From the NCBI GenBank assembly GCA_964609615.1, contig CAZSRL010000027.1, forward strand, positions 1 through 10,629: a DNA stretch of 10,629 nt, read 5' to 3'. The position numbers and the translations under genes were made by a program. This DNA is from an uncultured Muribaculaceae bacterium. Its GTDB lineage: Bacteria; Bacillota_I; Bacilli_A; RF39; UBA660. A model generated the notes under the pieces. That model made no database searches. It was not told the DNA's origin and saw only the letters and a program-made list of their open reading frames with translations. This document shows, piece after piece, positions 1 to 10,629 of the stretch (within the stretch, counting starts at the first letter, position 1; each line of letters opens with the position of its first letter).

Positions 1-2729
1 CCAGCCATTTTATCTCCAACACTCATTTTTCTTTTACTTGTTAAATAAATTCTTATTACTTTTGATACCCCAGATGGTAATTCATCGCTGTTTTCTTTTG
101 TAAATATTTTAATATCTTGAACTATTCCAGCACTTCCATGTGGAACACGTAATGAAGTGTCTCTTACTTCTCTTGTTTTTTCTCCAAATATTGCATGTAA
201 TAATTTTTCTTCACTACTTAATTCTTGTACTCCTTTTGGTGTAACTTTACCTACTAAAATATCATTTTCTTTTACTTCAGTACCAATTTTAATTATTCCA
301 TCTGAGTCAAGATTCTTACGAGCTTCTTCACTTACATTTGGAATATCCCTAGTGAATTCTTCAGGTCCAAGTTTAGTTTCTCTACATTCAACATCGTGTT
401 GTTCAATATGAAGTGATGTTAATACATCATCTCTTACAATTCTTTCATTCAATATTACAGCATCTTCATAGTTATAACCATTATAAGTCATGAACGCTAC
501 TACTAAGTTTTTACCAAGAGCAATTTCTCCTTTATCAGTAGAAGGTCCATCAGCAATAACCATTCCTTTTGTTACTTTGTCACCTTTTCTTACTATTGGT
601 TTTTGATTGTAACAAGTTTCTTGGTTACTTCTTTCATAATTGTATAAATTATATAAATCTTTTCCTTTTTCACGTTTTACAATTATTTGTTTTGAATCAA
701 CATAATCTACAACTCCATCAGCTTTAGCAACAACTACAACTCCAGAGTCCTTTGCTGCAACATGTTCAACACCAGTTGCTACATATGGAGCTTCGGCTCT
801 TAATAAAGGCACTGCTTGACGTTGCATATTTGCACCCATAAGTGCTCTTTTTGCATCGTCATGTTCCAAGAAAGGAATCATACTTGTAGTAATTGATACT
901 ATTTGTGAAGGTGCAACATCAACATAATCTATTTTTTCTCTCTCTACTATTAAATTATCTCCTTCAAATCTAGCAGGCACTTTTTCTTCTACTATTTCAT
1001 TTTTTGAATTAACATCTATTGTAGCTTGAGAAATATAATAATTTTCTTCTTCGTCAGCTGTCATATAAACAACTTCTTTTGTTAATTTTCCATTTGTTAC
1101 TTTTCTATATGGTGTCATAATAAAACCATATTCATTTACTTTTGCATAACTAGATAAACTAGTAATTAATCCAATATTTGGTCCTTCTGGTGTTTCAATA
1201 GGACAAATTCTTCCATAATGACTTAAATTAACGTCACGTACTTCCATACCTGCTCTATCTCTTGATAAACCACCAGGTCCAAGTGCACTTAATCTTCTTT
1301 TATCATTCATTTCACTCATTGGATTAGTTTGTTCCATAAATTTTGATAATTGACTACTTCCGAAGAACTCTTTTAAAGACGCTGTTACTGGTCTAATATT
1401 TATTAAACTTTTTGGTGTTACAGTTTCAATTTCTTGAGTTGTCATTTTTTCACGAATAACTCTTTCCATACGAGTTACACCAACTTTAAATTGATTTTGA
1501 ATTAATTCTCCACCTTGACGAACACGTCTATTTCCTAAATGATCTATTTCATCATAATTACCAATACCATAATGTAAATTGATATAATATGATATTGAAG
1601 CATACACATCACTTGTTGTAAGTCTTCTACTATCAATAGTAGGATCATTACCAATTACTTTTAAAACTTTATCACTTCCGTCATTAGCATATACTAAAAC
1701 TTCTTGAACTTTATTATAAGTATCAAGCTCATCATTTATTTTAACTTCTTTTAAAGCATATCCTTTTGCAAACAAGTCCTTTAATTCACTTAATTTTTCT
1801 TTTGTTACAGTTTCACCTTTTTTAACAATGATTTTATTTCCATCTTTTATATCCTGTGCTACTTTTTGGTTTAATAATCTTTCTAATACATTTAATTTTT
1901 TATTAAATTTATATCTACCAACTTTTGCTAAATCATATCTAAATTTATCAAAAAATCTAACAATTAATTGGTTTTTAGAACTATCAAGTGTAGCAGGTTC
2001 TCCAGGTCTTAATTTTTCATATATTTCTATTAAAGCTTCGTCTGTATTTTTTGTAGAATCTTTTGCAAAAGTATTATCTAACAATTCATCTTTACCAAAT
2101 ACATTTTCTATTTCTTCATTACTACTTAGTCCAAGTGCACGCAAAAATGTAGAAATAGGTACTTTCCTAGTTCTATCTATTCTAACATAAATAACACCAC
2201 GTGCATCAACTTCATATTCAAGCCAAGTTCCCTTTGTAGGAATCACTTCGCTAATTATAATATTTCTTCCATTTTTATCAATTTCACTTTTAAAATACAC
2301 ACTAGGAGATCTTACAAGTTGTGAGTTAATTACTCTTTCTGCTCCATTAATAATAAATGTACCAGTTTCTGTCATAAGTGGCATATCACCTAAAAATACT
2401 TCTTGCTCTTTTACTTCTCCTGTTTCATTGATATAAACCTTAGCATTAACTTTTAAAGGAGCTGCATAAGTAATTCTTCTTTCTTTAGCCTCTTTAATTG
2501 TATATCTAGGTTCTTCAAAGAAATAATCGCCAAACTCCAACGATAACGAACCAGAAAAGCTTTCAACTGGGAAAACATCATCAAATACCTCTTTTATTCC
2601 TTCATCCAAGAATTTTTTGTAACTGCTTTTTTGAATTTCCAACAAATCTGTTAATTCATAAACATTACGCATTTTAGAGAAATTTCTTCTCTCTCTATGG
2701 TCTCCAAACTTTTGTACTTTGTAAGCCAC
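1..2729 (-). CDS. rpoB: DNA-directed RNA polymerase beta subunit, N-terminal ~909 codons (3' end runs off the window at position 1)
   Basis: It is absent from the ORF track because there is no stop in the window. The minus-strand frame from GTG at 2729 (GGGGTGA RBS 4 nt upstream) stays open to position 3. My translation starts VAYKVQKFGDHRERRNFSKMRNVYELTDLLEIQKSSYKKFL. It contains GNRRVRQGGELIQNQF, LSALGPGGLSRDRAGMEVRDVNLSHYGRICPIETPEGPNIGLI and MGANMQRQAVPLL, and ends at the window edge with SVGDKMAG. These are hallmark RpoB motifs. Its position downstream of rplL plus the methyltransferase is the canonical one. Confidence 0.95.
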   Translation of the reverse strand, partial: MAYKVQKFGDHRERRNFSKMRNVYELTDLLEIQKSSYKKFLDEGIKEVFDDVFPVESFSGSLSLEFGDYFFEEPRYTIKEAKERRITYAAPLKVNAKVYINETGEVKEQEVFLGDMPLMTETGTFIINGAERVINSQLVRSPSVYFKSEIDKNGRNIIISEVIPTKGTWLEYEVDARGVIYVRIDRTRKVPISTFLRALGLSSNEEIENVFGKDELLDNTFAKDSTKNTDEALIEIYEKLRPGEPATLDSSKNQLIVRFFDKFRYDLAKVGRYKFNKKLNVLERLLNQKVAQDIKDGNKIIVKKGETVTKEKLSELKDLFAKGYALKEVKINDELDTYNKVQEVLVYANDGSDKVLKVIGNDPTIDSRRLTTSDVYASISYYINLHYGIGNYDEIDHLGNRRVRQGGELIQNQFKVGVTRMERVIREKMTTQEIETVTPKSLINIRPVTASLKEFFGSSQLSKFMEQTNPMSEMNDKRRLSALGPGGLSRDRAGMEVRDVNLSHYGRICPIETPEGPNIGLITSLSSYAKVNEYGFIMTPYRKVTNGKLTKEVVYMTADEEENYYISQATIDVNSKNEIVEEKVPARFEGDNLIVEREKIDYVDVAPSQIVSITTSMIPFLEHDDAKRALMGANMQRQAVPLLRAEAPYVATGVEHVAAKDSGVVVVAKADGVVDYVDSKQIIVKREKGKDLYNLYNYERSNQETCYNQKPIVRKGDKVTKGMVIADGPSTDKGEIALGKNLVVAFMTYNGYNYEDAVILNERIVRDDVLTSLHIEQHDVECRETKLGPEEFTRDIPNVSEEARKNLDSDGIIKIGTEVKENDILVGKVTPKGVQELSSEEKLLHAIFGEKTREVRDTSLRVPHGSAGIVQDIKIFTKENSDELPSGVSKVIRIYLTSKRKMSVGDKMA

Positions 2730-2801
2730 ATCTTCACCCCAATTTCTAAATTTTAAAAGAACATAAACTTTAAATATAAAAGTAAACGTTGCCAATTTAC
2801 A

Positions 2802-2830
2802 ATTATACTAAAGATTATTCCTCAAGTCAA
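2802..2830 (-). promoter_or_regulatory. Near-consensus sigma-A/sigma-70 promoter upstream of rpoB
   Basis: The minus strand reads TTGACT (2830-2825), an exact 17-nt spacer TGAGGAATAATCTTTAG, then TATAAT (2807-2802), about 70 nt upstream of the rpoB GTG. This is a sequence match only, with no transcript data. Confidence 0.55.
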
Positions 2831-2832
2831 CA

Positions 2833-3417
2833 TTATTTTGACTTAATTATGTAAAACCCTTTACTTTTATTCATTATTTCAACTTTATATTGTTTTTCTA
2901 ATAATTTTATAAAAGATTTTGCTCCACCATCTTTTCTAATAACGCACCAAAGCTCTCCATTATTTGTTAAATACTTTTTTGAATTTATTAAAATATTTTC
3001 AACTACAATTTTCCCTGCTCTAATGGGTGGATTAGTTATTATTAAATCATATTTATTATTTATTTTTTCATAGCAATTACTTTCAATTGCTTCTCCATTT
3101 ACTTTATTTAATTTAATATTTTCTAAAGACAAATGAACACTTCTTTTATTTATATCACATAACATAACTTTACAATTTTTAAGTTTTCCAATAACAATAC
3201 CTATAACACCATATCCACACCCTAAATCAAGTGCATTTGATATTTCAGCATTGGTAGATAGATATGTATCTAATAGTAATTTAGTTCCATAATCAACCTT
3301 ATTTTTAGAAAACACTCCATTATCAGACATAAATGTAAAATCAACGTCCCCTATATTATAATTTAATGTCTTTATATTACTTTTTAAATTTTCATTACTA
3401 GTAAAATAATGATTCAT
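2833..3417 (-). CDS. Class I SAM-dependent methyltransferase, RsmC/RsmD-like small rRNA methyltransferase (YbxB-like position between rplL and rpoB)
   Basis: 194-aa ORF. LDLGCGYGVIG matches SAM-binding motif I, and IITNPPIRAGK matches the NPP[I/F/H] catalytic motif of N2-G/N6-A methyltransferases. Bacillus-type genomes carry a gene of this kind at the same rplL-(methyltransferase)-rpoB position. The substrate is not inferable from sequence. Confidence 0.8.
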   Translation of the reverse strand: MNHYFTSNENLKSNIKTLNYNIGDVDFTFMSDNGVFSKNKVDYGTKLLLDTYLSTNAEISNALDLGCGYGVIGIVIGKLKNCKVMLCDINKRSVHLSLENIKLNKVNGEAIESNCYEKINNKYDLIITNPPIRAGKIVVENILINSKKYLTNNGELWCVIRKDGGAKSFIKLLEKQYKVEIMNKSKGFYIIKSK

Positions 3418-3446
3418 TTTGCCTCTTTCTATATCTCAATAAACGT

Positions 3447-3464
3447 AAAAAAGCCCAAAGGGCT
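3447..3464 (-). terminator. Intrinsic terminator/attenuator downstream of rplL
   Basis: The minus strand reads AGCCC-TTT-GGGCT followed by TTTTTT, 10 nt after the rplL stop. The stem is short (5 bp, GC-rich), so termination is likely partial, as is typical between rplL and rpoB. Confidence 0.55.
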
Positions 3465-3474
3465 ATTTTACATA

Positions 3475-3843
3475 TTAAACTAATTCTACAGTTGCGCCAA
3501 CTTCTTCAAGTTTTGCTTTAAGTTCATTTGCTTCGTCTGATGAAATATTTTCTTTAATATTTCCTCCAGCATCAGCTATATCTTTTGCTTCTTTAAGTCC
3601 TAAACCAGTAACTTCTCTTACAATTTTAATAACTTGTAATTTTTGTCCTCCTGCTTCTTTAAGAACAACAGTTTTCTTTGCATCTCCTGCTTCTTCTGCT
3701 GCCGCTGCTGGAGCTGCTGCTACTGCTACTGCACTTGGATCAACTCCAAATTCTTCTTTCATTGCATCTACAAGTTCTTTAACTTCTAGAATTGTCATTT
3801 CTTTAAGACCGTTAATAAAGTCTTCTTTTTTAATTTTTGCCAT
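3475..3843 (-). CDS. rplL: 50S ribosomal protein L7/L12
   Basis: 122 aa. It has an N-terminal dimerisation helix, an Ala/Pro/Glu hinge ([12 protein letters not shown]) and the C-terminal domain [22 protein letters not shown]...[28 protein letters not shown] upstream. Confidence 0.96.
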
Positions 3844-3858
3844 TATTAATCTCCTCCT

Positions 3859-4353
3859 TTAATTTTTTTCTAACCCTTCAGAATAAAGGTTAAGTGCAAT
3901 ACTTAAATTTTTAACATGTTCTATCATACCACCTGCTAACATAGTAAGAAGTCCTTCCATATTAGGTATTGACGCATAAGTTTTAATAAGCTCTTGATCT
4001 GCTTGTTCTCCATCAATCATTCCAACTCTAACTTCTAGTGCTGGATGCTTTTTAGCAAATTCACTTACTACTTTAATAGGTTCTATAATATCACTAGAGA
4101 AAAGATAAGCATTTGGCCCTTCCATGTATTCATCAAGGGCTATTTTATTTTCTTTTAATGCTAAAGCTACTAAAGTATTTTTATAAATTTTATAGTTAGC
4201 ATTAATTTCTCTTAGTTCTTTTCTAAGTAAAGATACTTCATCAACTTTTAATCCTTGATAATTAAGAATTAAAAATGTTTTAGAATCTTTTATATTATTT
4301 GAAATTTCTTTTACTACTTCTTTTTTAAGACTAAGACTCTTTTCGCTTGCCAT
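3859..4353 (-). CDS. rplJ: 50S ribosomal protein L10
   Basis: 164 aa. The N-terminal KKEVVKEISNNIKDSKTFLILNYQGLKVDEVSLLRKELRE matches the L10 pattern. It lies immediately upstream of rplL, with a GAAGGAGGAAG RBS. Confidence 0.93.
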   Translation of the reverse strand: MASEKSLSLKKEVVKEISNNIKDSKTFLILNYQGLKVDEVSLLRKELREINANYKIYKNTLVALALKENKIALDEYMEGPNAYLFSSDIIEPIKVVSEFAKKHPALEVRVGMIDGEQADQELIKTYASIPNMEGLLTMLAGGMIEHVKNLSIALNLYSEGLEKN

Positions 4354-4482
4354 ACACTTCCTCCTTCATATATCGATAAAAGCTTTCCCAAAGGAAAGCT
4401 TATAATCATTTTTATAAGTTCCTCGGTAGGATTTTTAAATTATTTAATCCCTACTGTCTTTGGTACTCGTTTTACGAACATT
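4354..4482 (-). promoter_or_regulatory. rplJ 5' leader, probable L10(L12)4-binding ribosomal-protein leader RNA
   Basis: 129-nt untranslated leader between the promoter and rplJ. The minus strand carries ACCAAAGACA-GTAGGGAT...ATCCTAC-CGAGG, a bulged hairpin (4426-4454) flanked by purine-rich strands. A perfect 9-bp hairpin AAGCTTTCC-TTTG-GGAAAGCTT (4380-4401) follows, just before the RBS. This layout resembles the Firmicute L10 leader as I recall it. It has not been tested with a covariance model. Confidence 0.5.
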
Positions 4483-4511
4483 ATTATATAACAATTATTT
4501 TTAATTGTCAA
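4483..4511 (-). promoter_or_regulatory. Consensus sigma-A promoter for rplJ-rplL
   Basis: The minus strand reads TTGACA (4511-4506, overlapping the last codons of rplA), an exact 17-nt spacer ATTAAAAATAATTGTTA, then TATAAT (4488-4483). Confidence 0.6.
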
Positions 4512-5196
4512 AAGAATTTTTATCTACTCTAATACCAGGTCCCATAGTACTTGAAACACTAATATTTTTTATATAAACGCCTTTTGAACCAGTTGGTTTA
4601 TTTTTGATAATTTCATTTACTAATGCAATTAAATTTTCTTCTAATTTTTTTTCAGTAAATGAAACCTTTCCAATAACTACATGTACATTAGCATATGTAT
4701 CAGTTTTGTATTCTATCATTCCTTTTTTGATATTTGATACTGCCATTTCTACATCAGTAGTTACTGTTCCAGTTTTAGGGTTAGGCATTAATCCTTTTGG
4801 CCCTAAAACTTTACCAATTTTACCTAAACTAGCCATCATATCTGGTGTCGCTACGATAACATCAAAATCGAACCAACCATCTTTTTCGATTTTTTTGATC
4901 ATATCATCGTCTCCAACAAAATCAGCTTTAGCAGCTTTTGCCTCAGCAACTTTAGTTTTAGTAATAACTAATACTTTAGGATTTTTACCTGTACCATTTG
5001 GAAGTACAAGTGATCCTCTTAATTGTTGATCAGATTTTTTTGTATCTAAATTTAATTTTATTGCAACATCTACAGTTGCATCAAATTTAGTTTTACTTAA
5101 TGATTTTGCTAATTTTATCGCTTCTTTATAAGAATATAAGTTTTTCTTATCTACTTTTTTTGAAGCTTCCACATAGTTCTTTCCGAATTTTTTCAT
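4501..5196 (-). CDS. rplA: 50S ribosomal protein L1
   Basis: 231 aa. The motifs KFDATVDVAIKLNLD, QQLRGSLVLPNGTGK, FDVIVATPDMM and LGPKGLMPNPKTGTVT are typical of L1. AAGGAGGT RBS. It follows rplK. Confidence 0.96.
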   Translation of the reverse strand: MKKFGKNYVEASKKVDKKNLYSYKEAIKLAKSLSKTKFDATVDVAIKLNLDTKKSDQQLRGSLVLPNGTGKNPKVLVITKTKVAEAKAAKADFVGDDDMIKKIEKDGWFDFDVIVATPDMMASLGKIGKVLGPKGLMPNPKTGTVTTDVEMAVSNIKKGMIEYKTDTYANVHVVIGKVSFTEKKLEENLIALVNEIIKNKPTGSKGVYIKNISVSSTMGPGIRVDKNSFDN

Positions 5197-5241
5197 TTTT
5201 TTACCTCCTTACGTGGTTATAAGTTAAGCGGATTATTTAAT

Positions 5242-5865
5242 TTATTCTTCTTTATTTTCTTCTTGATCTTCTTCTGTTTCAGATGATTCTTCTTCTGTTG
5301 CTTCTTCAGTTGATGTAGCTGCTGCTTCTGCCATTTCTTTAGCTTCTTCTTCCATTTGTTCTAGTTCAGCATCAAGCTTAGCCATTTCTTTTTCTGCTTC
5401 TGCTGCTTCTGCTGCTTGTTCAGCAAGCTCTGCATCATTAACTCCTTTTACTGCTATTCCCATATTTCTTGCTGTTCCTTCAATTGTTGACATAGCTTCT
5501 TCAAGAGTATAAGCATTTAAGTCTGGTAATTTTATTTCAGCTATCTTTTTTAAATCATCTTTCGTAATTGTTGCAACTATTTCATTAGCTCCTTTTACAG
5601 AACCTTTTTTAATTTTTGCTGCTTTAAGTAATAAAGTAGCAGTTGGTGGAGTTTTAAGTACGAAGTCAAATGTTCTATCTTCATAAACAGATATTTCAAC
5701 TGGTATTACATCTCCCATTTTATCTCTAGTTGCATCATTGTATCTAGTACAAAACTCTTGCAAATTGATTCCTGCTGGTCCAAGCACAGTCCCAACTGGT
5801 GGAGCTGGTGTTGCTTTACCTGCTTCAATTTGAAGTTTTACTTTTTGCATTATTGCTTTTGCCAC
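5242..5865 (-). CDS. rplK: 50S ribosomal protein L11 with an atypical acidic C-terminal extension of ~67 aa
   Basis: GTG start with a GGAGGTG RBS. Residues 1 to about 140 match L11 ([58 protein letters not shown]). Residues 141-207 are an in-frame Glu/Ala-rich tail. The same frame continues without interruption. Confidence 0.9.
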
Positions 5866-6003
5866 GAAAACACCTCCTATATTTTTAGATTTAATTTTTC
5901 GCGAGTGGTTATATCGCTATTATTCTTTCCGCTCCCACTTACTCACTTACATATAATAATATGCAAGCTGACTAAATGATAATAACATAAAAGATATAAA
6001 ATT

Positions 6004-7017
6004 TCAATGATTTTCTACTCTATTTAATAACTTATTAACATCTTGTAAGTTGCTATATTTAAAATAACCTTTATAGCTACTTATACTTTTATCATTCATA
6101 TATTTTATTTTTTTCTTTATTCTTCTTTTTGTTTTATTACATATTTTAATTATTAACTTTTTATTTTTTAATATAAAAGTATATCCTAAAAAACTAAAAC
6201 CATTATTAACATTATATATATTAGTTTTACTATTTAAATTAAGTTTTAATTTATTTAACTCTATATTTATATAATATAAACATTTTTTTAAATAATCTTT
6301 ATCATTACTAAATAATAAAAAATCATCCATATATCTAACATAACACTTTATTCTTAACTTTTCTTTTATATAATGATCAATATCATTTAAATAATATAAA
6401 GCAAGTATTTGACTACTCATATTACCTATAGGAAGACCTTTATTATACTTATATAAAGTAATATCTTTATTATTATACTTTAATATATTTTTATTAACAT
6501 AAGTTTTATTAGTACTATCAATAATATTAAATAATATCTTTTCTATTTCACTATCTAATTTAAGATTTAATAATTTTTCTTTTAAAATATCATGATCAAT
6601 ATTATAAAAAAACTTTCTAATATCACACTTTAAAACATATACATTACCATTTAATTTTAAACTATTTATAAAGCCTTTAACAAGCTTTATTCCTTCACCA
6701 CTACCTTTTCCCTCGCGACTTGCTATATTAGTGGATATAAGCCTTTTAAATATGTTTTCCTTTAAATAATATTCACTTATATAATAATTAACTATTTTAT
6801 CAATTAACTTTTCACTCATTATTACTCTACACTTAGGGTCACTTATTAAAAATATATTATAATACCCATGACTATATAAATCACTTTCTAATATATTTTT
6901 AATATTACAAACATTACTATTATAAAATAACTCAAACATAAATAACTTTTCTTTGTGTTTAGTATTTCTTTTAATATCTAAATAAACTTTATTTAATTTT
7001 TCAATATCAACTACCAC
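6004..7017 (-). CDS. DGR-type reverse transcriptase
   Basis: 337 aa. RT motif 4 reads GLPIGNMSSQILALYYLNDIDHYI, the [I/L/V]GxxxSQ signature that distinguishes DGR RTs from group II intron and retron RTs. Motif 5 reads YVRYMDDFLLF (YxDD catalytic box). GFSFLGY lies downstream. The size is typical of DGR RTs and there is no maturase or endonuclease domain. The annotated start is GTG and overlaps the upstream ORF by 11 nt with no obvious SD, so the exact start is uncertain. Confidence 0.87.
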   Translation of the reverse strand: MVVDIEKLNKVYLDIKRNTKHKEKLFMFELFYNSNVCNIKNILESDLYSHGYYNIFLISDPKCRVIMSEKLIDKIVNYYISEYYLKENIFKRLISTNIASREGKGSGEGIKLVKGFINSLKLNGNVYVLKCDIRKFFYNIDHDILKEKLLNLKLDSEIEKILFNIIDSTNKTYVNKNILKYNNKDITLYKYNKGLPIGNMSSQILALYYLNDIDHYIKEKLRIKCYVRYMDDFLLFSNDKDYLKKCLYYINIELNKLKLNLNSKTNIYNVNNGFSFLGYTFILKNKKLIIKICNKTKRRIKKKIKYMNDKSISSYKGYFKYSNLQDVNKLLNRVENH

Positions 7018-7345
7018 TTTTTAATAAACCATAACTAATCTTTCTAATTTCAATAATAAAATTAACTATCACTTCATACTTTCTTTTATTAATAATTTTT
7101 CTTTTATAACAAATACCCATATAATAATCAATCATACTTAAATTAACAATAAAGTCTTTTAAATTCTTTTCTTTGACTTTACCTATATTACATTTATAAT
7201 AAAATAATAATTCAATACTTTTATATAAACAAACCTCTAAATTACTTTTCAAAACAACTTCCTTTTTAGGACAATTAACTAATACTTTATTAATATAATC
7301 ATTTGTTTTTTTAACTTTATTTAATAATATAAAACTATAATTCAT
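7007..7345 (-). CDS. avd: Avd-like accessory variability determinant (small basic four-helix-bundle protein)
   Basis: 112 aa, Lys/Arg-rich. The pattern YINKVLVNCPKKEVVLKSNLEVCLYKSIELL...KRKIINKRKYEVIVNFIIEIRKISYGLLKS parallels Avd-family proteins (a P-K/R-K/E motif in helix 1-2 and a C-terminal EI.K...G..K). It sits immediately upstream of the RT and is translationally coupled to it. The similarity was judged by eye only. Confidence 0.6.
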   Translation of the reverse strand: MNYSFILLNKVKKTNDYINKVLVNCPKKEVVLKSNLEVCLYKSIELLFYYKCNIGKVKEKNLKDFIVNLSMIDYYMGICYKRKIINKRKYEVIVNFIIEIRKISYGLLKSGS

Positions 7346-7739
7346 TTATAAAATCCTTAATTTTACTATAATTATTAATATCCTTAACTAAACACTTATG
7401 CACTAAATTATTTAATAAATCTTCCTTATACTCAATATCGTAAAATAACTTAGCCATACTTAAATACCTATTATAATTATTAATATCTACTTTATAATAA
7501 ACAATATTATTCTTAGGATAACTAACTAATACACAAATACCACTATTATTTAACCCTAATATTACACTTTCAAGACTATTATCTGGAAAACCAACTATCA
7601 TATCATGTATTTTATACTTAAATATTTCATGTATTACTAACGCATCATCACCAAAACTTCTATAAAACTTTCCACAATTAACAATTACAACATACTTTTT
7701 ATTATTACTTTTCAAACTAAAATAAATACTCTTAAACAT
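7335..7739 (-). CDS. MutS domain I-like (mismatch-binding-domain-like) accessory protein
   Basis: 134 aa. [29 protein letters not shown]...[24 protein letters not shown] lines up with the E. coli MutS N-terminus [29 protein letters not shown]...[30 protein letters not shown] RBS 8 nt upstream of the ATG. It is the first gene of the three-gene operon. Confidence 0.5.
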   Translation of the reverse strand: [134 protein letters not shown]

Positions 7740-7762
7740 TAATACTTCACCTATCTATAATA

Positions 7763-7797
7763 ATAGTATCTCTCTCTCTCTCTCTCTCTCGTGTCAA
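7763..7797 (-). promoter_or_regulatory. Candidate promoter of the accessory/RT operon with an over-long spacer formed by the (GA)11 tract
   Basis: The minus strand reads TTGACA (7797-7792), then C + (GA)11 (23 nt), then TACTAT (7768-7763). TATTAT variants lie just downstream, followed by AGGTGA and the ATG at 7739. The -35 is consensus, but the spacing is 6 nt longer than the 17 nt seen in the three other promoters in this window. Confidence 0.3.
7769..7790. repeat. Perfect dinucleotide microsatellite, (TC)11 on the plus strand and (GA)11 on the minus strand
   Basis: Read directly: tctctctctctctctctctctc at 7769-7790. It is the only such tract in the window. Confidence 0.97.
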
Positions 7798-7807
7798 GAG
7801 TTTTTAG

Positions 7808-7849
7808 AAAAAAAATAACAAAAAAAGTACTAAACAAAATGTTTAGTAC
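7808..7849 (-). terminator. Intrinsic terminator ending the TR-containing transcript
   Basis: The minus strand has a perfect 10-bp stem GTACTAAACA-TTT-TGTTTAGTAC (7849-7827) followed by TTTTTTTGTTATTTTTTTT (7826-7808). It terminates only the minus strand, since the plus-strand side lacks a T-run after the stem. Confidence 0.6.
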
Positions 7850-8046
7850 GACCTAGTTATAGTCCTATAAATTAATAAAATATTAAGTCATAAAACATCT
7901 AAAATCATATATTTAGGTTTCCCATGGATAAATTTTGTTTCCAATCTATTTATATAGATTATTTATATCATACAATATAAATTACTTCCTCACAATATTA
8001 GCCTTAACCAATATTTCTCGGTTTAGTATTACTATTTATAGTAGGA

Positions 8047-8160
8047 ATCTGGGAAGACGCCGTTCGAGTTGTTCAGATTGTTGTTGTTCAGGTTACCATC
8101 ACTATTCACGTTCATCGCATTCACATTACCATTAGAGACATTCCAATTGTTAGGAGACAT
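8047..8160 (-). repeat. DGR template repeat (TR), non-coding
   Basis: This 114-nt stretch aligns without gaps to 8345-8458 (offset 298). In the VR frame it reads MSPNNWNVSNGNVNAMNVNSDGNLNNNNLNNSNGVFPD, with 16 AAY codons. The coding strand has 38 adenines. It is not inside any credible ORF. Confidence 0.88.
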
Positions 8161-8180
8161 CCATTCTATCAAATTTACCC

Positions 8181-8244
8181 AAAAATCAGCCCTCGGTGGC
8201 TTACCTCCCACCGATCGCCGTCAAAAAACAAGGAGTTGTTTTTT
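8181..8244 (-). terminator. Two hairpins downstream of the target gene stop (possible terminator and/or DGR RNA 5' structure)
   Basis: On the minus strand there is an AT-only hairpin, AAAAAACAA-CTCC-TTGTTTTTT (8244-8223). A GC-rich hairpin TCGGTGG-GAGGTAAG-CCACCGA (8214-8193) follows, then GGGCTGATTTTTGGG. The GC-rich patch is conspicuous in an AT-rich context. Its function is not established. Confidence 0.35.
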
Positions 8245-8263
8245 GATTCCCTCTTTACTTAGT

Positions 8264-9811
8264 TTACTGTACTACATATGGATTAGCACTCGTTCCAGGG
8301 TTCTCCACGTTAACAGTTGCCAGTGTTTCAGCGGAGAGCGATATAACTGGGAAGACGCCGCGCGAGTAGTCCAGATCGTAGCTGCGCAGGCGACCATCAC
8401 TATTCACTTCCACCGCAGGCACACTACCATCAGCGACACGCCAATTGAAAGGAGACATAGTCCATCTAGATACTCCTGATTTATAAAGATAATATGATGA
8501 ATTTCCAGTACCATATATTCCTCCTGCAAATGCTACTTCATCTCCAGTTAATAATCCTACATTTAAATTATATATATCATTTCCTTCACTTGTAGATGTT
8601 GGACATATAAAACTAGGACTAGCAGATGCTACTGGATATAATCTATTTCTTACTCCAAAACAATAATAATCTGTTCCTGTTGTGTATGTTCTATCATTAC
8701 AAAACTTTGTTGGTACTACTTTACTTGAATAGTTTGTATTATTTCCTATATTTGTGTTATACCATGTTTCTACATTTCCTTTTATTGTTGAATTTCCATA
8801 TGTTGCATATGTTATTGCTGTTTCCCATGTTTTACTTGAATAATTTGTATTCCATGCACTATCTATTCCTGTTGTTGTATTAAGTACCAGTCTTACACTT
8901 CCGTCTCCATTGATTCTGACTACTCTCCATAGCATTGGATCTCCTGCACTATGTATAACTTCCGAACATTCTTGTGCTGATTCATTATAATATTCATCAT
9001 CAATACATTCACTTAAAGAACTTGCTTCCCAAACTTGCCAATTATATAATGTTTCTGTATAATTTGGTCCAAATGTTACATAGTTATCTGGTGCTGTCCC
9101 TCTAAAGTAATATGTTTTATCTCCATAGTCATCATTTGGACCACTAATTAATCCTTCATCGGTTTTTGATACTGCTCTTCCTGGATATGTTGTATATGTT
9201 GTTGGTGGGTTATTTGTTTTTAGCATGTCTGCTAATGTTGGTTCACTTGATGTTGATGCATTTACATCTAGTACTTCTATCTTTCCACTTATACTTTTTC
9301 CTTGGTTTTCATTTTGATTTTCATTCCTACTTAGAAATCTAAAATGTAGTGTATATGTTTGAGTTACTCCTGTTGCTATTGTTGCATTACTTATTATACT
9401 TACATGGTCTCCACTATTTGGTAGTTGTGTTTCTGATAGTGTTGAACCAGAGTTATTACTTGTTACACTATATACCATATCTGTTTTGGTTGTGAATGTA
9501 TTTGTTAGCGTTGCCCAGTTTATATTATAGTGTACTTCCCCGTCTCCTGTATTAGTTACAGTAAATGTTTTTTCTCCTGTCCACCCTGGCATTATATTAT
9601 CTTCGTTATATTCTGGTCCTCCATTATATGTTATAGAAAGGTTTGCAGTTGTTACTGTTACTCCTTTTGCTGTATCATTTCCACTTACTGTTGCTGAAAA
9701 CCATGCATATGATACTCCTGCTATTGCTATTATTACCACTAGTGTTAATACTGCTATTGTTTCTTTTTTATGTGTTTTTAGTTTATTTAAAAGTTTTTTT
9801 ACTTTATCCAT
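8264..9811 (-). CDS. DGR variable (target) protein, secreted or surface-located, with the VR in its C-terminal ligand-binding-type domain
   Basis: 515 aa with an AAAGGAGAAG RBS. The N-terminus KKETIAVLTLVVIIAIAGVSYAWFSAT resembles a SipW-dependent/TasA-camelysin-type signal peptide. A Thr/Asn-rich beta-type region follows (IMPGWTGEKTFTVTNTGDGEV). The C-terminal part contains WRVVRINGDGSVRLV, VGLLTGDEVAFAG and RWTMSP...GVFPVISL. The VR encodes residues about 452-489. Confidence 0.85.
   Translation of the reverse strand: MDKVKKLLNKLKTHKKETIAVLTLVVIIAIAGVSYAWFSATVSGNDTAKGVTVTTANLSITYNGGPEYNEDNIMPGWTGEKTFTVTNTGDGEVHYNINWATLTNTFTTKTDMVYSVTSNNSGSTLSETQLPNSGDHVSIISNATIATGVTQTYTLHFRFLSRNENQNENQGKSISGKIEVLDVNASTSSEPTLADMLKTNNPPTTYTTYPGRAVSKTDEGLISGPNDDYGDKTYYFRGTAPDNYVTFGPNYTETLYNWQVWEASSLSECIDDEYYNESAQECSEVIHSAGDPMLWRVVRINGDGSVRLVLNTTTGIDSAWNTNYSSKTWETAITYATYGNSTIKGNVETWYNTNIGNNTNYSSKVVPTKFCNDRTYTTGTDYYCFGVRNRLYPVASASPSFICPTSTSEGNDIYNLNVGLLTGDEVAFAGGIYGTGNSSYYLYKSGVSRWTMSPFNWRVADGSVPAVEVNSDGRLRSYDLDYSRGVFPVISLSAETLATVNVENPGTSANPYVVQ
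8345..8458 (-). repeat. DGR variable repeat (VR) within the 3' end of the target gene
   Basis: The VR encodes MSPFNWRVADGSVPAVEVNSDGRLRSYDLDYSRGVFPV. It differs from TR at 24 of 114 nt, and 22 of those are at TR adenines (A->G 11, A->C 6, A->T 5). All 22 fall at codon positions 1 or 2. The 3' end CGGCGTCTTCCCAG (8360-8347) is identical to TR (8062-8049), and homology is lost right after it, which is IMH-like. Confidence 0.88.
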
Positions 9812-9836
9812 ACTTCTTCTCCTTTATTATATGTTA

Positions 9837-9865
9837 ATTATATTATCTTTTATTTTTTATGTCAA
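9837..9865 (-). promoter_or_regulatory. Consensus sigma-A promoter of the DGR target gene
   Basis: The minus strand reads TTGACA (9865-9860), an exact 17-nt spacer TAAAAAATAAAAGATAA, then TATAAT (9842-9837), about 25 nt upstream of the ATG at 9811. Confidence 0.65.
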
Positions 9866-9889
9866 TCTTAACCTCGTGTGTGTGGGATT

Positions 9890-9912
9890 AAAAAAAAGTG
9901 TATTTCTACACT
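9890..9912 (-). terminator. Weak intrinsic terminator after nusG
   Basis: The minus strand reads AGTGTA-GAAA-TACACT (9912-9897, overlapping the nusG TAG) followed by a T-run of 7-8 nt. The stem is only 6 bp and AT-rich, so termination is probably leaky. Confidence 0.4.
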
Positions 9913-10450
9913 AATTTTTACTTATTTGCATTAAATCTACTTCAACTGGAGTTTCTTGCCCAAATAAATCTATAAGTACATTTAATTTTTGGTTTTCCAA
10001 GTCAATATATTCAACTTTACCGCTCATACCATTGAATGGACCATCAATAATAGTTACAGAGTCTCCAACATTTATTTCTGTTTCAATGTCAACTCTACTC
10101 ATACCCATATTGTTTAGAATTTTATCTATTTCTTGAGGTAATAATGGAGTTGGTTTTGCACCTTTACCACTTGATCCTATAAATCCAGTTACTCCTGGAG
10201 TATTTCTTACCACATACCAAGCTTCGTCGCTCATAACCATTTCTACAATTACATAACCCGGAAACATCTTTTTAGTTTTTTCTTTTTTAACACCATCTTT
10301 AATTTCTATTTCTGTACTTTCTGGTACTATAACTCTGAAAATGTTATTTTCCATTCCCATAGACTCAGTTCTCATTTTTAAATTTTCAGCTACTTTTGTT
10401 TCATGACCAGAATAAGTATTAACTACATACCATAACTTTTGTTCTTCCAT
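9911..10450 (-). CDS. nusG: Transcription termination/antitermination factor NusG
   Basis: 179 aa. The NGN domain reads WYVVNTYSGHETKVAENLKMR...FPGYVIVEMVMSDEAWYVVRNTPGVTGFIGS. The KOW domain reads VGDSVTIIDGPFNGMSGKVEYID. The ATG overlaps the secE stop (TAATG). Confidence 0.96.
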   Translation of the reverse strand: MEEQKLWYVVNTYSGHETKVAENLKMRTESMGMENNIFRVIVPESTEIEIKDGVKKEKTKKMFPGYVIVEMVMSDEAWYVVRNTPGVTGFIGSSGKGAKPTPLLPQEIDKILNNMGMSRVDIETEINVGDSVTIIDGPFNGMSGKVEYIDLENQKLNVLIDLFGQETPVEVDLMQISKN

Positions 10451-10629
10451 TATTTCATCGACTCCCTTAAAAATGCAAATATTGTATCTAAACTATAAAA
10501 GAAAAGTGCAAAAAATATTATAAGCGATATACACACAATAGAATATTTTACTAATTCTTTCCCCTTAGGCCAATGTGTTTTAGAGCCTTCTTTTTTCACT
10601 CCTAAAAAGAATGTTTTTATTTTACCCAT
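10450..10629 (-). CDS. secE: Preprotein translocase subunit SecE (59 aa; the ATG lies exactly at the window edge)
   Basis: It is not in the ORF track, probably because it is short. My translation of the minus strand from 10629 is MGKIKTFFLGVKKEGSKTHWPKGKELVKYSIVCISLIIFFALFFYSLDTIFAFLRESMK, then TAA at 10452-10450. The W-P-K-G-K-E-L motif, the single TM segment and the length match Bacillus-type SecE. An upstream start outside the window cannot be excluded. Confidence 0.85.
   Translation of the reverse strand: MGKIKTFFLGVKKEGSKTHWPKGKELVKYSIVCISLIIFFALFFYSLDTIFAFLRESMK

Follow-up and report, generated by a model that had tools for sequence, protein, structure and literature searches.

A MutS domain I-like accessory protein in the enzyme operon of a diversity-generating retroelement from an uncultured bacterium

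We find that the first gene of the enzyme operon of a diversity-generating retroelement (DGR) from an uncultured Muribaculaceae bacterium (GTDB lineage Bacteria; Bacillota_I; Bacilli_A; RF39; UBA660) encodes a 134-amino-acid stand-alone homolog of domain I, the mismatch-binding head, of the repair protein MutS. The gene, here called msl, occupies positions 7335..7739 on the minus strand of the window, the whole 10,629-nucleotide stretch of DNA that we analyzed (GenBank assembly GCA_964609615.1, contig CAZSRL010000027.1, positions 1 to 10,629 of the forward strand), and its identification draws on its open reading frame (ORF), Pfam, an AlphaFold2 model, Foldseek and the ratio of nonsynonymous to synonymous substitution rates (dN/dS). 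A preliminary description made from the letters alone had noted that large surveys of DGRs list a MutS-like accessory class; this class was indeed defined as MSL, for "MutS-like", by Wu et al. 2017 (PMC5758913), and the window protein is almost certainly a member, the MSL proteins of Legionella and Bacteroides having been compared by their published descriptions. The replacement of the variable repeat (VR) by mutagenized cDNA, with survival of the heteroduplex in the face of mismatch repair (MMR), is the main open step in DGR biology, and heteroduplex survival also limits DGR-based directed-evolution tools, with E. coli reconstitutions relying on ΔmutS strains or dominant-negative MutL. Among natural DGR components, MSL alone descends from a protein of the kind that acts at this step. 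The value of the window is that of a compact, seemingly intact example with family-level details and not of a new category: the family offers as handles a near-invariant Phe, a missing Glu, fusions to reverse transcriptase (RT) and to the accessory variability determinant (Avd) that locate the protein, and an RT clade that can be compared with MSL (87%) and without it (~13%).

Homology, fold and gene context of MSL

The msl product matches a single Pfam family, MutS_I (PF01624), with E = 1.1e-8 and a score of 35.7 bits (gathering cut-off 20.6), the match spanning residues 4–63 and profile positions 5–73 of 113. The NCBIfam equivalog for full-length MutS scores 12.2 bits against a cut-off of 480, and the protein is too short for, and has no match to, the MutS connector, lever, clamp or ATPase domains; the preliminary description had likewise seen no connector, clamp or ATPase domain. 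A profile of 61 MSL relatives aligns by hhalign to residues 15–95 of E. coli MutS with a probability of 91% and E = 1.1e-6, reproducing the alignment first made by eye, and pairs MSL G23-K-F25-Y-R27-S-F-G-D-D-A with MutS G34-D-F36-Y-E38-L-F-Y-D-D-A and MSL V49-G-F-P with MutS A68-G-I-P; the numbering of the E. coli MutS sequence used here agrees with the textbook F36 and E38. All 61 aligned relatives themselves match Pfam MutS_I. Searches against Protein Data Bank (PDB) sequences give weak matches, with MSH3 the best for the single MSL sequence in phmmer (E~0.9) and MSH6/MutS reached by the 61-sequence profile at E~3e-3, and the case for homology therefore rests on Pfam, hhalign and the comparison of folds.

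An AlphaFold2 model built from a 37-sequence alignment is confident across all 134 residues, with a mean predicted local distance difference test (pLDDT) score of 95.9 and a predicted template modeling (pTM) score of 0.83; this run was used in place of one with a 2-sequence alignment, which reached a pLDDT of 33.8. Foldseek comparison of the model with the PDB returned MutS, MSH3 or MSH6 domain I as every one of the top 50 matches, with E values from 1e-6 to 4e-4 over 67–99 aligned columns and root-mean-square deviations (rmsd) of 0.8–2.5 Å in alignments of ~70–85 columns. The query-normalized TM-score is held to about 0.5 by the restriction of the match to the N-terminal ~80 residues. The homology of MSL to MutS domain I is real and far beyond chance, and its first ~86 residues almost certainly adopt the domain I fold (residues 1–86, 7482..7739, minus strand, from hhalign, Foldseek and model secondary structure), built in the model from a helix at residues 2–12, strands at 16–21 and 25–29, a helix at 30–40, a strand at 48–52, a helix at 53–65 and further strands at 69–74 and 78–82.

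The counterpart of the MutS G-D-F36-Y-E38 mismatch-contact motif is G23-K-F25-Y-R27 (7659..7673, minus strand), in which the Phe is retained and the position of MutS Glu38 is taken by Arg, and relative to E. coli MutS the hhalign alignment shows no loop 57–65. The alignment to MutS stops at MSL residue 76. Residues 87–134 (7338..7481, minus strand) form a family-specific C-terminal extension that lacks an aligned MutS counterpart and folds in the model as two helices, 89–119 and 123–133; it opens with a near-invariant N87-x-Y89 (N87 in 108 of 140 relatives), and a Pfam scan of the window protein and its relatives found no family covering it.

A profile search of 1.84 billion representative proteins at E<=1e-3 recovered 386 MSL clusters (50% identity), most of them 120–150 residues long and matched over their full length. 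A word-indexed homolog search with the single MSL protein found only 2 relatives, and tblastn of the window MSL against 50,697 phage genomes found none. Conservation was counted in an alignment of 150 relatives drawn from the 386 clusters, where the ten most conserved positions are each kept in at least ~84% of sequences: G23 (144/150), F25 (146/150), Y26 (138/150), D32 (144/150), A33 (126/150), Y42 (145/150), F51 (147/150), P52 (130/150), L63 (142/149) and Y89 (141/144). Positions 10, 21, 43, 48 and 58 are mostly Lys or Arg. The position equivalent to Glu38 holds Lys in 33 relatives, Arg in 27, Tyr in 16, Asn in 15, Ile in 13, Val in 10 and Glu in 10, with other residues in the remainder. As judged from this alignment, the altered Phe-x-Glu motif is a family-wide trait of MSL in which the Phe is near-universal and the Glu dispensable. 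The alteration noted in the preliminary description is thus real, with Phe kept and Glu replaced by Arg, and its reading as a peculiarity of the window ORF is rejected, the position being variable across the family.

Selection on the gene was gauged against a related locus, L001, whose MSL homolog is 63% identical. The dN/dS of msl is 0.36, beside 0.42 for avd and 0.27 for RT, and by this measure msl is under purifying selection comparable to that on avd and RT. The proposal that msl heads the operon of DGR enzyme genes is borne out: the genes run msl-avd-RT, with overlaps of 11 nucleotides (nt) between msl and avd and 11 nt between avd and RT. An msl/avd overlap of 11 nt is also present in L001, L002, L005, L006 and L007, whose MSL proteins are ~30–63% identical to that of the window, and its conservation despite this divergence argues for translational coupling. 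Natural fusions confirmed by Pfam join RVT_1 to MutS_I (P0057, P0150) and MutS_I to bAvd (P0118), and MSL is joined to the C-terminus of the RT, after the thumb, in P0057, P0122, P0143 and P0150.

Association with the RT extends across its clade. We aligned RTs encoded beside msl, searched the GTDB species genomes with this alignment, took the 80 best loci and sought MSL by a hidden Markov model scan of all their ORFs. The RTs of these loci are 36–53% identical to the window RT, 53% being the value for the best relative in GTDB genomes, and most loci come from metagenome-assembled genomes labeled uncultured Bacilli, Tenericutes, "Mycoplasma sp. CAG:776/956", "Clostridium sp. CAG:451" or "Firmicutes bacterium CAG:822", many of the loci deriving from human or animal gut-type samples. 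The msl-avd-RT arrangement is found in 47 loci and avd-RT-msl in 15, several of these overlapping or fused with RT; 3 loci have only a shorter MSL match, 10 are evaluable and have no MSL, and 5 are too truncated for judgement. MSL is accordingly present in 65 of the 75 evaluable DGRs of the clade (87%). Co-occurrence with this RT clade, which the preliminary description had put forward as a check, holds for the majority and fails for a minority of 10, two of them in Saccharibacteria-type (candidate phyla radiation, CPR) genomes, and these absences make MSL an accessory and not a universal component and do not undermine the homology. "Mycoplasma sp. CAG:956" carries two DGRs of the clade, L031 with MSL and L041 without it, and it is possible that MSL acts in trans. 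That some related DGRs lack MSL is rejected as disproof of a role for it, since this pair of loci leaves room for such action.

A second, degenerate MSL-like ORF of ~90–110 amino acids lies in 10 of the 80 related loci (L036, L042, L047, L053, L061, L066, L072, L076, L084 and L085; for example L042 325-711), either upstream of msl or downstream of RT, and is absent from the window. It matches the MSL family by hhalign with a probability of 97.9% and E = 6e-13, lacks the Phe of G-x-F-Y and the Y-K...G-F-P segment, and could be the partner in an asymmetric MSL pair. Locus L009 carries an MSL homolog (6001-6408) with neither RT nor Avd in the 6 kb to each side of it, its neighbors being a 685-amino-acid protein without Pfam matches and housekeeping genes.

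Candidate roles of MSL in the DGR pathway

In MutS, the hairpin that carries Phe36 inserts into the minor groove, stacking against the mismatched base, and Glu38 couples recognition to ATP-dependent repair licensing. We tentatively favor the reading, to which we give slightly less than an even chance with the near-certain identity of the protein included, that MSL is a nucleic-acid-binding subunit of the RT–Avd complex that acts on the mismatch-rich intermediate and shields or stabilizes it against host MutS. MSL would be made with Avd and RT from one translationally coupled operon and would travel with the RT–Avd complex, and its MutS-type beta-hairpin, bearing the conserved Gly-x-Phe-Tyr, would engage a distorted, mismatch-dense duplex of adenine-mutagenized cDNA paired with the parental VR. 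Binding could not trigger repair because MSL has no ATPase or clamp domains and no repair-licensing Glu; by occupying or stabilizing the heteroduplex, MSL would keep host MutS from reverting the VR to the parental sequence, and the result would be a higher yield of diversified VRs in MMR-proficient hosts. Nucleic-acid binding, the choice of substrate and the antagonism of MMR are the parts of this account that we infer.

Operon coupling, fusions to either partner and 87% co-occurrence place MSL physically with RT and Avd, and the most economical reading of a Gly-x-Phe-Tyr that is preserved next to a Glu that is free to vary is a non-signaling binder of mismatches or distortions. When Macadangdang and colleagues deleted mutS from the host of a DGR without Msl, mutagenesis of the VR rose 5-10-fold as an all-or-nothing effect (bioRxiv 10.1101/2024.11.15.621889); this Bacteroides deletion shows that host MutS reverts DGR heteroduplexes, and shielding or stabilization is therefore favored. 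RF39-type gut lineages, for the window a candidate host group only, are reported to keep mutS and mutL, and RFN20 to be often without mutS (bioRxiv 10.1101/2020.01.21.914887). If MSL is a portable MMR shield of this kind, engineered DGR or retron editors that carry it could dispense with mutations in the host. A bolder version, which we hold to be doubtful, casts MSL as a retroelement-borne decoy mismatch sensor, a MutS head without the signaling parts, delivered by RT–Avd, that blocks host MutS on the cDNA:VR duplex and, in those DGRs that have the Phe-less paralog as well, joins with it to mimic the asymmetric domain I pair of a MutS dimer; MSL would then be a dedicated anti-mismatch-repair factor carried by a retroelement.

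Several points weigh against a shielding role. The affinity of MutS for DNA comes mostly from its clamp domains, which a lone domain I does not have. The aligned Phe is kept, and the Glu is not, in the corresponding MSH2 sequence (GDFYTAH), the same pattern as in MSL; domain I of MSH2 is not inserted into the mismatch, and conservation of the Phe could therefore be structural. MSL is missing from 10 of 75 evaluable, closely related DGRs, and its fusion to the RT C-terminus is explained by action on an RNA:cDNA hybrid no less well than by action on a DNA heteroduplex. Most DGRs overall are without MSL, which was found in 16 of 372 (PMC5758913), and the Bacteroides DGRs that have Msl are described only as encoding it (bioRxiv 10.1101/2024.11.15.621889).

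The RT fusions favor an explanation that we consider unlikely, in which MSL is an RT cofactor that binds the template-primer duplex as this RNA:cDNA hybrid emerges from the enzyme and tolerates or stabilizes fresh A:N mispairs, allowing synthesis to proceed beyond them, as a mismatch-tolerant extension of the thumb. The position of MSL after the thumb in the fusion proteins and the translational coupling of msl to avd and RT are consistent with such a cofactor, and loss of the repair-licensing Glu would be irrelevant to it. However, MSL is also fused to Avd, or free on either side of RT; the Bordetella bRT–Avd makes adenine-mutagenized cDNA without MSL; and MutS domain I binds the minor groove of B-form DNA, not A-form RNA:DNA hybrids. 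The published survey speaks on both sides, with three RTs noted for MutS_I-like C-terminal extensions in favor of a cofactor and the many DGRs without MSL against it (PMC5758913).

The resemblance to MSH2 raises a different explanation, improbable in our judgement, in which MSL is a mismatch-blind adaptor for bent or branched DNA that docks the cDNA–RT–Avd complex at the end of the VR, in the initiation of mutagenic homology (IMH) region, at a hairpin or cruciform, or at a fork. The MSL motif is MSH2-like in keeping Phe and losing Glu, basic residues are conserved on the domain, and the Phe-less paralog in 10 of 80 loci recalls the asymmetric domain I pair of the MutS dimer, but conservation of the Phe in 146 of 150 relatives goes beyond the obvious need of an adaptor that binds the DNA backbone. 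The Legionella DGR reportedly needs a DNA cruciform at its target, as Arambula and colleagues are said to have found in 2013, and this would count in favor of an adaptor. The same DGR is reported to carry MSL (PMC5758913).

We regard as very improbable the converse of shielding, that MSL recruits host repair or replication factors and steers resolution toward the cDNA strand: on general logic, heteroduplex resolution must favor the cDNA strand for fixation, and the MutS ancestry of MSL would suit such a recruiter, but MutS engages MutL through its connector and ATPase domains, neither of which MSL has, and host mutS deletion raised, not lowered, DGR output. A decaying mutS fragment or a chance, functionless ORF, which the short protein, the 28% GC content of the window and the match of only ~60 residues to the Pfam profile might suggest, retains next to no probability and is refuted by conservation (386 clusters of full-length relatives of similar size, 61/61 of the aligned relatives matching MutS_I), by the dN/dS of 0.36 and by the fixed operon position with its conserved 11-nt avd overlap, and it also fits poorly with a confident fold prediction over 134 residues.

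The DGR cassette and its upstream elements

The DGR of the window looks intact from its gene content and repeats, with target, template repeat (TR), msl, avd and RT together within 3.9 kb. On the minus strand the order is secE, nusG, target, TR, ~200 nt of conserved non-coding sequence, a hairpin, TTGACA-C-(GA)11, msl, avd and RT, followed downstream by rplK-rplA-rplJ-rplL; between nusG and rplK lie only the target gene, msl, avd and RT, and no HRDC gene. The avd gene (7007..7345, minus strand) encodes 112 amino acids that score 39.8 bits against Pfam bAvd, just below its 40-bit cut-off, and match the NCBIfam DGR Avd model at E = 4.8e-9 (under its cut-off) and the PHROG family 'Avd protein of DGR' at E = 5.4e-9. 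The RT (6004..7017, minus strand; 337 amino acids) matches RVT_1 at E = 2e-20 and carries LPIGNMSSQ, conserved in the clade alignment across the RTs of related msl-bearing loci; an I/LGxxxSQ motif marks DGR-type RTs.

The TR has a 112-nt core with 37 adenines (8049..8160, minus strand; repeat family D1) and aligns with a VR at 8347..8458 on the same strand, which covers codons 452–489 of the 515-codon target. Of the 23 positions at which the two cores differ, 21 are TR adenines, so that 21 of 37 TR adenines are changed as against 2 of 75 other bases (Fisher p = 8e-11). L090 is the only other contig that covers the VR, and it is 100% identical to the window. The target gene (8264..9811, minus strand) encodes 515 amino acids with an N-terminal hydrophobic, signal-like segment and a weak N-terminal Peptidase_M73/camelysin match (E = 1.7e-4), in weak resemblance to camelysin/TasA-type proteins. 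At L008 (7843-11450), genes of the S26 signal-peptidase-like and sortase types come after the target gene. These features hint that DGRs of this kind may diversify a secreted or cell-surface, fiber-type protein.

Upstream of msl, a Shine-Dalgarno-like ribosome-binding site, AGGTGA (7747..7752, minus strand), lies 7 nt before the ATG, and L001 has AGGAGG at this position. A promoter-like TTGACA-C-(GA)11 followed by TACTAT (7769..7797, minus strand) is a candidate promoter for msl-avd-RT, with the (GA)n tract between the two boxes and 49 nt upstream of the msl start codon. The length of the tract varies among contigs that are nearly identical elsewhere: the window and L090 have n = 11, L091 and L093 have n = 10, and L001 (where the equivalent element lies at 419-442), L092 and L094 have n = 8, and over 1036 nt the sole difference between L091 and the window is a 2-nt gap in this tract. 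The spacer between TTGACA and TACTAT is 1+2n nt, or 17 at n = 8 and 23 at n = 11. At the equivalent site in L037 and L068, two msl-avd-RT loci that are unrelated, the repeat is (GT)7 or (GT)9. This variation suggests that the tract is a candidate phase switch for expression of the DGR enzymes; a metagenome scan for additional (GA)n alleles found none.

The only terminator-like site in 5850-9950 is an intrinsic-terminator-like hairpin followed by a T run (7827..7849, minus strand), which is conserved in L001 with both sides of one stem pair changed in a compensatory manner and is predicted to separate the TR/spacer transcript from the msl-avd-RT operon. A perfect TTGACA-17-TATAAT promoter-like site lies before the target gene at 9837-9865 and is the only strong promoter-like site upstream of the TR. 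From this layout, the TR RNA may be a 3′ extension of the target mRNA that ends at the terminator and is separate from the enzyme operon. Conservation between the window and L001 in the ~200 nt downstream of the TR (window 7827-8048, minus strand) exceeds that of the flanking genes, and a hairpin in this stretch differs on both sides between the two (AATATTGG...CTAATATT against AATATTAA...TTAATATT).

Three independent samples contain an 83-amino-acid ORF (P0003; L092 555-806, L093 478-729 and L094 147-398) that reads in one frame from MSL residues 1–39 into the final ~44 residues of the RT, the remainder of msl, the whole of avd and most of RT being deleted. L092 and L093 are 97–98% identical to the window upstream of the junction, at about window position 7618, and in L092 and L094 the fusion ORF is followed by rpsJ, not rplK. 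As their sequences read, these loci are decayed DGRs that retain the TR, the promoter element and the (GA)n tract.

The whole cassette sits inside the conserved secE-nusG-rplKAJL cluster, between nusG and rplK (window 5242-10629), and at L001 (2369-5183) msl-avd-RT is directly followed by the S10 operon, rpsJ-rplC-rplD-rplW. A DGR beside ribosomal-protein operons, as in both the window and L001, is unusual. The window's gene for ribosomal protein L11 (5242-5865, minus strand) encodes 207 amino acids, with a ~65-residue Glu/Ala-rich tail past the normal end, the usual length of L11 being ~140 amino acids. An ordinary ribosomal protein L10 leader (4366-4481, minus strand; Rfam RF00557, 68.4 bits) lies upstream of rplJ.

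Comparison with published MSL proteins and MutS-family domains

Wu et al. 2017 found MSL in DGRs as proteins of 112–283 amino acids (the 16 of 372 given above), accompanied in every case by avd and in none by HRDC ("Architecture D"), and counted the Legionella DGR in the class (PMC5758913). Macadangdang et al. use the name Msl for three Bacteroides DGRs, Bfr, Bth and Bun (bioRxiv 10.1101/2024.11.15.621889). The association of MutS-like proteins with DGRs is repeated in a review, in a 2023 genomic study that links PF01624 with DGRs and in a 2026 preprint, the last of which takes the MutS-like DGR homologs to implicate MMR and uses them to justify MMR suppression. The DGR papers that we read report no biochemical or genetic test of MSL.

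The window msl agrees with the published class in every feature compared, with a length of 134 amino acids inside the 112–283 range, homology to domain I, a place in a DGR cassette, the company of avd and the absence of HRDC, and it is thus of a kind already published in 2017. RT–MSL fusions are common to the window's family and to the set of Wu et al. 2017, and nothing places the window protein outside the class. New relative to the papers that we retrieved are the family-wide loss of Glu with Phe kept, the two-helix extension, the presence of MSL in 87% of the evaluable DGRs of an RT clade mainly from uncultured gut Bacilli/Tenericutes-labeled genomes, the MSL–Avd fusion and the degenerate second paralog.

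MSL shares with domain I of MutS and MSH6 the same fold over ~75–85 residues (rmsd ~2.2–2.5 Å to E. coli MutS and 1.2 Å to MSH6) and the motifs Y-x-x-x-K, [KR]-x-G-x-F-Y, D-A and G-[FI]-P, and its Phe aligns with the mismatch-stacking Phe36 of MutS. Unlike these domains, MSL has the helical extension in place of the C-terminal third of domain I and has neither the Glu nor loop 57–65. Of the features of a functional MutS, it is without the Phe-x-Glu motif and the connector, lever/core, clamp and ABC ATPase (domain V) regions, and lacking connector, lever, clamp, ATPase and dimerization domains makes ATP-driven repair signaling impossible for it. The predicted phage proteins A0A8S5PL02 and A0A8S5L9N2 in BFVD also have a stand-alone domain I fold (TM-score 0.92 normalized to the 74-residue target), but at 74–84 amino acids they are without the C-terminal helices of MSL. 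Domain I of MSH2 and MSH3, like MSL, is without the canonical Phe-x-Glu, and MSH3 is both the best single-sequence PDB match of MSL and close to it in structure (Foldseek rmsd 0.8–1.4 Å). In MSH2 and MSH3, however, domain I is embedded in heterodimeric ATPases of >900 residues, whereas MSL stands free or is fused to the RT or Avd.

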